Shown here: piece by piece, positions 4,811-4,884 of the stretch
How the letters are laid out: each line of letters opens with the position of its first letter
How positions within the stretch are numbered: position 1 is the first letter of the stretch
From: Acidobacteriota bacterium
GTDB taxonomy: Bacteria; Acidobacteriota; Vicinamibacteria; Vicinamibacterales; UBA2999
Direction of reading: 5' to 3'
Assembly (NCBI GenBank): GCA_016210845.1
Contig: JACQTK010000142.1
Span: forward strand, 11,479-75,478
DNA: 64,000 nucleotides
Notes under the pieces: generated by a model
Database searches by the model: none
Told to the model about the DNA's origin: nothing
What the model saw: the letters and a program-made list of their open reading frames with translations, nothing else
Translations under genes and position numbers: made by a program

Positions 4811-4884
4811 GTAGTAGGCAGTAGGCAGTAGGCAGTAGGCAGTAGGCAGTAAGCAGGGGCACAGGCTGCCGGCTGCCTACTGCC
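4811..4884. repeat. heptanucleotide tandem array (GTAGGCA)5+1 with a short inverted partner
   Basis: Five perfect GTAGGCA units at 4814-4848 and a degenerate gtaagca at 4849-4855. The inverted tgcctactgcc at 4874-4884 overlaps the stop codon of the upstream response regulator. Confidence 0.9.

Follow-up and report, generated by a model that had tools for sequence, protein, structure and literature searches.

Inverted GTAGGCA heptanucleotide arrays at gene junctions of a Vicinamibacterales-like acidobacterium, a known class of simple repeat with a likely role as transcribed hairpins

Why do tandem runs of a single heptanucleotide, GTAGGCA, stand between genes in an acidobacterial genome, each with an inverted copy of the same unit close by? 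The question is raised by a stretch of 64,000 nucleotides, here called the window, from an Acidobacteriota bacterium of the order Vicinamibacterales (assembly GCA_016210845.1, contig JACQTK010000142.1, positions 11,479 to 75,478), in which such arrays are found at three loci. The answer that we favour, with a probability of about 60%, is that these are heptanucleotide simple repeats of a known kind, with the unit GTAGGCA, in Vicinamibacterales-like Acidobacteriota, and that they form transcribed junction hairpins built by slippage. Their position makes a role as transcribed intercistronic or 3'-end hairpins likely. The arrays, their short inverted partners and the spacer between the second and third arrays are as follows.

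4813..4856, minus strand: array 1, (GTAGGCA)6.3 on the plus strand and (UGCCUAC)n in gene sense (Tandem Repeats Finder, 97% matches)
4873..4884, minus strand: short inverted partner of array 1, CTGCCTACTGCC on the plus strand and GGCAGTAGGCAG in gene sense
6458..6501, minus strand: array 2, 6.3 copies, the 3' arm in gene sense, (UGCCUAC)n (Tandem Repeats Finder, 89%)
6502..6537, minus strand: spacer between the arms of arrays 2 and 3 (sequence and predicted fold)
6538..6588, minus strand: array 3, 7.3 copies with seven perfect units of GUAGGCA, forming the 5' arm in gene sense (Tandem Repeats Finder, 100%)
18112..18123, strand undefined: short inverted partner of array 4, GGCAGTAGGCAG on the plus strand
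18148..18230, strand undefined: array 4, (CTGCCTA)11.9 on the plus strand with interspersed CCGCCTA variants (Tandem Repeats Finder, 92%)

The boundaries given by Tandem Repeats Finder lie within 1–3 bases of those in the original prediction, which had named four arrays of one family, each with an inverted partner. The family relationship is confirmed: the short partners at 4873–4884 and 18112–18123 are real, and arrays 2 and 3 are reverse complements of each other. GTAGGCA is the unit GGCAGTA in another register, and array 4, in the sense of the minus-strand gene beside it, reads (GUAGGCA/G)n, with GTAGGCG variants interspersed. In a window of 68% GC there are 23 occurrences of the doubled unit with no more than one mismatch, where shuffled sequences predict 0.01, and the exact heptamer is present 27 times against 2.65 expected, with 25 of these 27 inside the three array loci. 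The units are contiguous, with none of the unique spacers that would separate the repeats of a CRISPR array; an Rfam scan of the whole window gave no match at gathering score, and a tRNA scan of the window found none.

All three loci lie between genes supported by Pfam, as their description as intergenic implied.

2162-4798, minus strand: class I tRNA synthetase gene (Pfam)
4877-6040, minus strand: response regulator gene (Pfam)
6045-6455, minus strand: gene for the separate B12-binding subunit of methylmalonyl-CoA mutase (Pfam)
6596-8245, minus strand: gene for the catalytic large subunit of methylmalonyl-CoA mutase (MCM) (Pfam)
16897-18057, plus strand: acyl-CoA dehydrogenase gene (Pfam)
18235-19488, minus strand: gene for a BamB-like propeller protein (Pfam)

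The first locus leads from the response regulator to the tRNA synthetase and the second from the MCM large subunit to the B12-binding subunit, both within a run of co-directional genes; the locus at 18 kb lies between the convergent genes for the acyl-CoA dehydrogenase and the BamB-like protein. Array 1 is upstream of the tRNA synthetase, 14 nt from its ATG (4798), and the TAG stop of the response regulator (4877–4879) falls inside the short partner at 4873–4884. At the convergent locus the short partner (18112–18123) sits 54 nt past the acyl-CoA dehydrogenase stop, and array 4 begins 5 nt past the TGA stop of the BamB-like gene (18235–18237). At the second locus, array 3 begins about 7–9 nt past the TGA of the MCM large subunit (6596–6598) and a gap of 2 nt separates array 2 from the downstream ATG of the B12-binding subunit (6455), with no Shine-Dalgarno motif between array 2 and that ATG. 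In gene sense this spacer reads TGA, 7–9 nt, (GUAGGCA)7, an inner stretch, two degenerate units, (UGCCUAC)4, 2 nt, AUG.

The two arms of the MCM locus are perfectly complementary over 31 bp and 93% complementary over 44 bp. In the predicted fold of 6440–6610 (minus strand) arrays 2 and 3 pair with each other, giving −112.1 kcal/mol and z = −11.9, and the predicted duplex is longer than the 20 bp or more needed for processing by RNase III; transcription of the hairpin is assumed from the operon arrangement. Most of the spacer at 6502–6537 is predicted to pair as an imperfect extension of the stem, with a GGACG/CGUCC stem as a cap and a few central bases unpaired. The two degenerate units of array 2 are on the loop side, and the last bases of the 5' arm together with the first bases of the spacer make up a GGGAGG motif in gene sense (~6534–6539). 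The claim that every locus can form a long hairpin therefore holds for 6458–6588 and fails for the other two, whose predicted stems are 12 bp (4790–4900, minus strand, z = −3.0) and 13 bp (18050–18250, plus strand, z = −1.7, with 9 of 200 shuffles folding as well).

What might such structures do? The predicted geometry of the stem relative to stop and start codons is the strongest functional argument. With a stem of −112 kcal/mol placed 2 nt before an AUG that has no Shine-Dalgarno sequence, and 7 nt past the preceding stop, de novo initiation would be occluded and stop and start would be brought side by side, so that expression of the B12-binding subunit would probably hinge on upstream translation or on cutting of the duplex, with RNase III as one candidate. 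More generally, we propose that the arrays would grow and be homogenised by slippage in 7-nt steps, that some may have been seeded by duplications spanning a TAG stop codon, and that the second arm would stay complementary to the first through selection or template switching. Transcribed with the operon, they would act as RNA hairpins. Between co-directional genes the stem would loop out an insertion of 140 nt, leaving the upstream stop and the downstream start within ~10 nt at its base; where genes converge, the proposed role is that of a hairpin at the 3' end.

How far is this structure shared by related genomes? A protein search with MCM found no conspecific sequence; the relatives, whose MCM proteins are the next matches after the source at 80–85% identity and some of which are named Vicinamibacterales, do not exceed 85%. 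The order MCM, B12-binding subunit, response regulator, tRNA synthetase is kept in the relatives examined. After MCM, locus L121 has GTTGACG/CGTCAAC arms, with (CAGTAGA)n after its response regulator; L122–L125 have GGCAGCN/NGCTGCC arms at both junctions; and L126 has a plain 9-bp hairpin after MCM, with GGAAAAA/TTTTCCC arms one junction further on. Fold z-scores for the spacer directly downstream of MCM are −4.05 in L121, −2.4 in L122, −2.7 in L126 and −0.6 in L128, the L121 value being that of the spacer between MCM and the response regulator, where the B12 gene is missing. Set in one register, the units GGCAGTA (window), GGCAGCC/GGCAGTT (L122) and GACAGTA/GACGGTT (L121) differ at one or two positions. 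In these same three genomes the second arm of the MCM-downstream spacer is complementary to the first, and the response-regulator gene ends CAG-TAG or CAA-TAG within the first repeat unit. At the orthologous junctions of relatives there are thus either heptamers of related sequence (GGCAGNN, GACNGTT, GACAGTA) or a plain hairpin, several junctions having complementary arms, implying that hairpin potential recurs there. Our reading of this comparison is that arrays at the same site may descend from a common ancestor and have been homogenised within each genome.

In a set of 84 loci the spacer between MCM and the B12-binding subunit is 0–3 nt in eight, 25–140 nt in others and ~500 nt where an open reading frame (ORF) has been inserted; further heptamer-armed hairpins are found among the 25–140 nt spacers, in L207 and L239. 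The very short spacers of many relatives suggest that tight linkage of the MCM and B12 cistrons may be ancestral, with the heptamer hairpin a later insertion.

Some further features of these junctions may be recorded here. In L121 (84% MCM identity) the response regulator follows MCM with no B12-binding gene in between, and the heptamer hairpin of this junction (11603–11714) lies directly before the response-regulator start. The motif CTACACTA(G/T) stands directly upstream of the class I tRNA synthetase ATG in the window (4799–4812), in L121 (12891–12905) and in L122 (13631–13645), and is kept in these three genomes although the adjoining heptamer units differ. The more distant loci L219, L220, L223, L225 and L241 have their MCM and B12-binding genes ~480–540 nt apart, with CTCTGTG-type repeats first in the spacer and then a small inserted ORF (ATGACCGACAACGAAATC...). 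In the 21.6-kb locus L122 about 8–9 of ~14 intergenic gaps of at least 40 nt hold a heptamer array, belonging to five families (AAATCCC, CCCCTAA, AATGCTC, AATGCAA and GGCAGNN); the window, with arrays in 3–5 of 25 gaps, is far below this density. An array at an acyl-CoA dehydrogenase gene in L109, a Blastocatellia metagenome-assembled genome (MAG), was considered as an ortholog of the 18-kb locus and rejected, since it lies on the other, upstream side of the gene.

GTAGGCA arrays are not confined to this lineage. A scan for (GTAGGCA)3 in one genome per species counted at least 120 genome stretches. Among the matches listed, 42 are Acidobacteriota by record title (Pyrinomonadaceae, Blastocatellia, Vicinamibacterales), and others come from Mesorhizobium and other Alphaproteobacteria, Bacteroidota, Planctomycetota, Chloroflexota and cyanobacteria. 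Isolates that carry the arrays include Mesorhizobium loti DSM 2626, Maribacter polysiphoniae DSM 23514 and a Vibrio, the last with a complete chromosome; contigs with the unit are as long as 1.3 Mb. In IMG/VR, where (GTAGGCA)3 is found in 48 stretches, three composition-matched control heptamers are found in 7, 6 and 11, so that heptamer arrays of any sequence are common and GTAGGCA is 4–8 times commoner than the controls. These 48 IMG/VR contigs (L130–L177, 'viral' only by contig classification) carry 133 GTAGGCA-family arrays, and most have a GC content of 61–72%. Searches of the searchable literature for the single unit, and for the doubled unit in 6 of its 14 rotations and strands, returned only unrelated papers, and no description of heptamer repeats in Acidobacteria was found there. 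What is new here is therefore the lineage, the unit GTAGGCA, its occurrence across phyla and the strict orientation described below; the class of repeat is already described.

Placement follows rules that can be stated simply. Genes in the fetched loci were called, after masking of the arrays, by a rough heuristic of third-position GC content (GC3) and ORF length, with reliable stops and unreliable starts. Of 169 arrays, 167 are intergenic and only two are flanked on each side by an open frame of 300 nt or more, so that the arrays are not scattered at random through genes. The genes to either side point the same way in 82 cases; 23 pairs are convergent and 7 divergent. Arrays in GTAGGCA sense start a median of 4–6 nt past the upstream stop, and in 25 cases the array's own TAG is that stop; arrays in TGCCTAC sense lie near the downstream start. 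For solitary arrays it is the 5' end of the G-rich strand that is nearer a gene in 65 of 83, and the other end in 18 (p = 2e-7). Arrays of four copies are the commonest class, with a median of 5.4 and a maximum of 22. In other genomes roughly one array in two has an inverted partner no more than 200 nt away, and ~3% have a separate direct partner.

The inverted pairs are all of one polarity. Every one of 75 pairs, from 54 loci, is arranged 5'-(GTAGGCA)n...(TGCCTAC)n-3', with none in the opposite order; the count is 34:0 in the genome set (among the matches listed) and 41:0 in the independent viral-contig set, and the fixed polarity is seen in at least six phyla. The TAG is on the G-rich strand, whose 5' to 3' direction leads away from the gene border and into the middle of the spacer, and the arrays are flush with the flanking genes. 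It follows that a spacer with two arrays always has them convergent and able to pair. The loops enclosed by the arms of 34 pairs have no BLAST similarity to one another; their lengths lie between 5 and 152 nt.

Some loops in other genomes hold terminator-like hairpins. The suggestion that the arms have wrapped round an older terminator hairpin gained modest support and was not retained (median loop z of −0.71 against 0.11 in controls; values below −2 in 10 of 48 loops against 4 of 48 controls). Two general rules for arm order were likewise discarded: that the arm with stop codons faces the gene, which fails for other heptamer families (8 against 5; 6 against 2), and that the G-rich arm comes first, which held 10:1 in a first set and failed in an unselected one (4 G-first, 5 C-first, 3 equal). 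The polarity appears to be specific to each heptamer family, other families seeming to have their own.

Against the interpretation of the arrays as transcribed junction hairpins several points have to be set. The argument for a role at the RNA level is one from position. Two of the three window loci have stems of only 12–13 bp with weak z-scores. A consensus scan finds no intrinsic terminator on the transcribed strand at the arrays; its only site there, 4868–4887 on the plus strand, is antisense to the genes, the other arrays have none, and its total for the window is 5 against 4.7 in shuffles. Among 30 co-directional pairs, sense and antisense RNA hairpins are equally stable (14 against 16, p = 0.96), and selection on the sense-strand RNA through G-U pairs was rejected for want of this asymmetry; the sense transcript thus bears no mark of selection, and an origin at the DNA level or by mutation alone fits just as well. 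The structure must also be dispensable, since L128 has no significant hairpin at its MCM junction (z = −0.6) and the MCM–B12 spacers of many relatives, at 0–3 nt, could not accommodate one. With a ribosome stopped 7 nt ahead of the stem, no more than 1–2 bp would be opened, so that a simple coupling by unwinding is not guaranteed. Finally, the hairpin model does not account for the strict polarity.

The most serious rival, possible though in our view doubtful, is that the arrays are a neutral mutational by-product: some property of the lineage would favour 7-nt slippage, the arrays would have no function, and the inverted arms would arise by template switching at palindromes. As 7 is not a multiple of 3, expansion would be harmless only outside genes. 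In 767 kb of related loci that had not been selected for repeats, 7 is the commonest tandem period (58 entries, against 24 for period 8, 36 for 9 and 29 for 12), many unrelated heptamers occur in the same genomes, and the composition-matched control heptamers are themselves arrayed far above chance. Mrazek's polymerase-footprint hypothesis, as summarised in PMC4679880, would fit here, and so would the unrelated loop sequences, the lack of sense-strand bias in hairpin stability and the junctions of L128 and the short-spacer relatives. The arms tell against it: they are complementary in several genomes, and the units of the stop-side G arm of the response regulator are related across three, and to keep both arms matched would require selection or a dedicated copying mechanism. 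The 75:0 polarity and the scarcity of arrays between divergent genes point to constraints beyond being non-coding, and a −112 kcal/mol stem as close as 2 nt to a start codon must affect translation of that gene.

At the other extreme, heptamer-armed hairpins might be a general device shared across phyla, or the footprint of a dedicated mechanism acting at junctions, with a terminating ribosome re-initiating across the base of the hairpin. We think this unlikely. The arm on the stop side carries stop codons in all three frames, its complement borders a start codon without a Shine-Dalgarno motif, and plant pararetroviruses offer a model in the ribosome shunt across their large leader hairpin, of which re-initiation here would be the bacterial counterpart. 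If it were true, the 75:0 polarity would reflect that function or some directional process of repeat generation, and could not be explained by the formation of G-quadruplexes.

Could the arrays instead be binding sites, for a protein that recognises GTAGGCA or UGCCUAC, such as a nucleoid protein, a regulator like S1, Csp or CsrA, or Rho? Like Rho-binding sites, the UGCCUAC strand is rich in C and poor in G. The unit recurs at several loci of one genome and, with the same polarity, in at least six phyla, and its excess over the three control heptamers (48 stretches against 7, 6 and 11) could be read in the same way; for the TAACTGA repeats discussed below, binders were proposed by MacGregor (PMC4679880). 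Against this, related genomes have different units at the same sites, and single genomes such as that of L122 hold several unrelated heptamer families, which one specific binder cannot explain. At the paired loci, moreover, the strands would be base-paired and so unavailable to a protein that binds single strands. A binding function is accordingly quite improbable.

Slippage in 7-nt steps that would alter stem length and the spacing to start and stop codons was part of the original prediction. In its stronger form the arrays would be phase-variable contingency loci, gaining and losing units often enough to switch or tune their neighbours within populations. The seven identical units at 6538–6588 do imply slippage or homogenisation on an evolutionary time scale, the repeat units turn over between species, and heptamer repeats tune hmw expression in Haemophilus influenzae (PMC12721329). 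A direct comparison was possible for other heptamer families in a relative, at the level of consensus sequence, using four independent assemblies of one Vicinamibacterales population that are 99.85–99.96% identical (8–29 substitutions in 16–21 kb). All 10–15 heptamer arrays are reproduced base for base, with no unit gained or lost, and the sole indel, of 1 nt, is outside the arrays. The neighbours in the window (MCM subunits, response regulator, tRNA synthetase, acyl-CoA dehydrogenase, BamB-like protein) are housekeeping genes and not surface, virulence or restriction genes, and Rehm et al. came to the same negative conclusion for Xanthomonas (PMC4692102). Tuning by slippage thus finds no support where it could be tested, and phase variation is very unlikely.

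It is still harder to see the arrays as the terminal inverted repeats of a small mobile element, MITE- or REPIN-like, spread by a transposase. Terminal inverted repeats would indeed give arms of one fixed polarity, the GTAGGCA family is common to several loci of one genome, and two of the window loops share GGCAGGGAG(G/A)ACG beside the G arm. The loops of 34 pairs are without similarity and of any length from 5 to 152 nt, however, where such an element would have a conserved interior and a fixed length; there is no set arm length, and roughly every second array stands alone. Related arrays at orthologous sites in diverged genomes imply descent in place. The REP, BIME and REPIN families are genome-specific intergenic hairpin repeats that are frequent between co-directional or convergent genes. 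Included in operon transcripts, they work as mRNA stabilisers or attenuators; REPs are imperfect palindromes of 20–40 nt and fixed length, mobilised by RAYT transposases. The GTAGGCA arrays resemble them in being intergenic and hairpin-forming, but REPs are not tandem 7-nt arrays of variable length. An assembly artefact, finally, can be dismissed: although the source is a MAG from short reads and many matches in other MAGs lie at contig ends, so that such repeats do disturb assembly, the window arrays are 44–83 bp long and internal to a 79-kb contig, heptamer arrays are identical in four independent assemblies, and the GTAGGCA arrays of isolates and of one complete chromosome exclude it.

How do the transcribed junction hairpins that we favour compare with repeats already described? 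The closest likeness is to the heptamers analysed by Rehm et al. in 2015, GGGAATC in Xanthomonas and GGGGA(C/T)T in Nostoc, which have a strong non-coding bias and many intergenic sites, with 70–75 convergent inverted pairs of GGGAATC per Xanthomonas genome (PMC4692102). In these repeats the G-rich strand is the coding one within 50 bp past a stop, which some arrays overlap, or the non-coding one directly before an ORF; they are under-represented between divergent ORFs, have housekeeping neighbours, and differ in length and sequence between species while their single or paired type is preserved, with no support for phase variation (PMC4692102). All of these placement rules are found in the GTAGGCA arrays too, and as Xanthomonas is a high-GC genus with the same architecture, the statement in the original prediction that heptamer repeats are not known from high-GC genomes has to be withdrawn. 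There are differences, however. The host phylum is another, the Xanthomonas preference for four units is only partly seen, and GTAGGCA has GG only and no GGG tract, so that the canonical three-tetrad G-quadruplex, which is the explanation of the Rehm authors, is not available to it.

Other heptamers resemble the GTAGGCA arrays in part. The TAACTGA repeats, common to marine Beggiatoaceae, cyanobacteria and Bacteroidetes, form 169 sets of 2–6 copies, one of them indirect, often just upstream of starts that lack a Shine-Dalgarno sequence (MacGregor 2015, PMC4679880). Like GTAGGCA they are a single intergenic heptamer spread across distant phyla with no evident mechanism of transfer and with housekeeping neighbours; they are almost all direct and short, whereas about half of the GTAGGCA arrays have an inverted partner and copy number reaches 22. 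According to the summary in PMC4679880, Mrazek (2007) found heptanucleotides to be the commonest long simple repeats in many bacterial genomes, among them most of the repeat-rich ones and several high-GC genera. In H. influenzae hmw1A, (ATCTTTC)n in the transcribed 5' untranslated region forms a long hairpin that is cleaved by RNase III and controls expression (PMC12721329). The locus at 6458–6588 is like it in combining a heptamer array with a complementary region as a long hairpin near a start codon, and RNase III may act on it likewise; hmw1A is a single phase-variable virulence locus in which the partner is a G-rich region, and at the GTAGGCA locus the partner is a second array. The original prediction had also pointed to the cyanobacterial STRR, which is the right class; they are cited as three tandem heptanucleotides of Calothrix PCC 7601 (PMC4692102). 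STRR (Calothrix, Nostoc) and GTAGGCA arrays are both tandem heptanucleotides, present in many copies and mostly non-coding; STRR have other units and belong to another phylum, so that the GTAGGCA arrays are not members of that family. To our knowledge the inverted-pair architecture is not part of the description of STRR.

The window contains other repeats as well. A degenerate hairpin at 252–397, of another family, has arms of ~7-nt periodicity, GTTCGNN on the left (285–314) and NNCGAAC on the right (340–397), and a TACGAAC/GTTCGTA pair that resembles it is found in L126 (8497–8584). The 40-nt gap at 363–402 matches itself best at a lag of 7 (0.55). Just past the stop of the gene that ends at 36305, inverted arms with a period-8 repeat occupy 36316–36405 (CACAGAGG...GAGACGCAGAG against CTCTGTGT CTCTGCGT CTCTGTGG); their CTCTGTG/CACAGAG motif also occurs after the MCM stop or before the B12 start in L219, L220, L223, L224, L225 and L241. 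A 26-nt inverted repeat at 9860–9926 (92% complementary, 15-nt loop; CGATGCCAACCAGCCAAGGGGCTCCG / CGGAGCCCCTTGGCTGGTTGCCAGCG), within or beside small ORFs at 9636–10004, is unrelated to the heptamer family. The region 42000–48000 is an island of lower GC content (60–63%, against 68% overall) that has no heptamer arrays and may have been acquired horizontally; its genes encode a 960-residue STAND-type NTPase (AAA_16/NB-ARC with TPR, 42783–45665) and a methyltransferase (45640–46671).

What do these arrays mean for the biology of the organisms that carry them? A unit that cannot form a canonical quadruplex obeys the placement rules of the Xanthomonas repeats, which weakens the quadruplex explanation and indicates a more general cause. 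The polarity is a strict and simply stated rule that is amenable to test with synthetic constructs. The orthologous junctions, which run from an overlap or spacing of 0–3 nt through a plain hairpin to a heptamer hairpin of 140 nt, provide a system for studying how operons tolerate insertions between coupled cistrons. For the soil Acidobacteria (Vicinamibacterales, Blastocatellia), which are abundant and mostly uncultured, the finding means that their intergenic DNA is rich in heptamer arrays, and that these arrays break metagenome assemblies.

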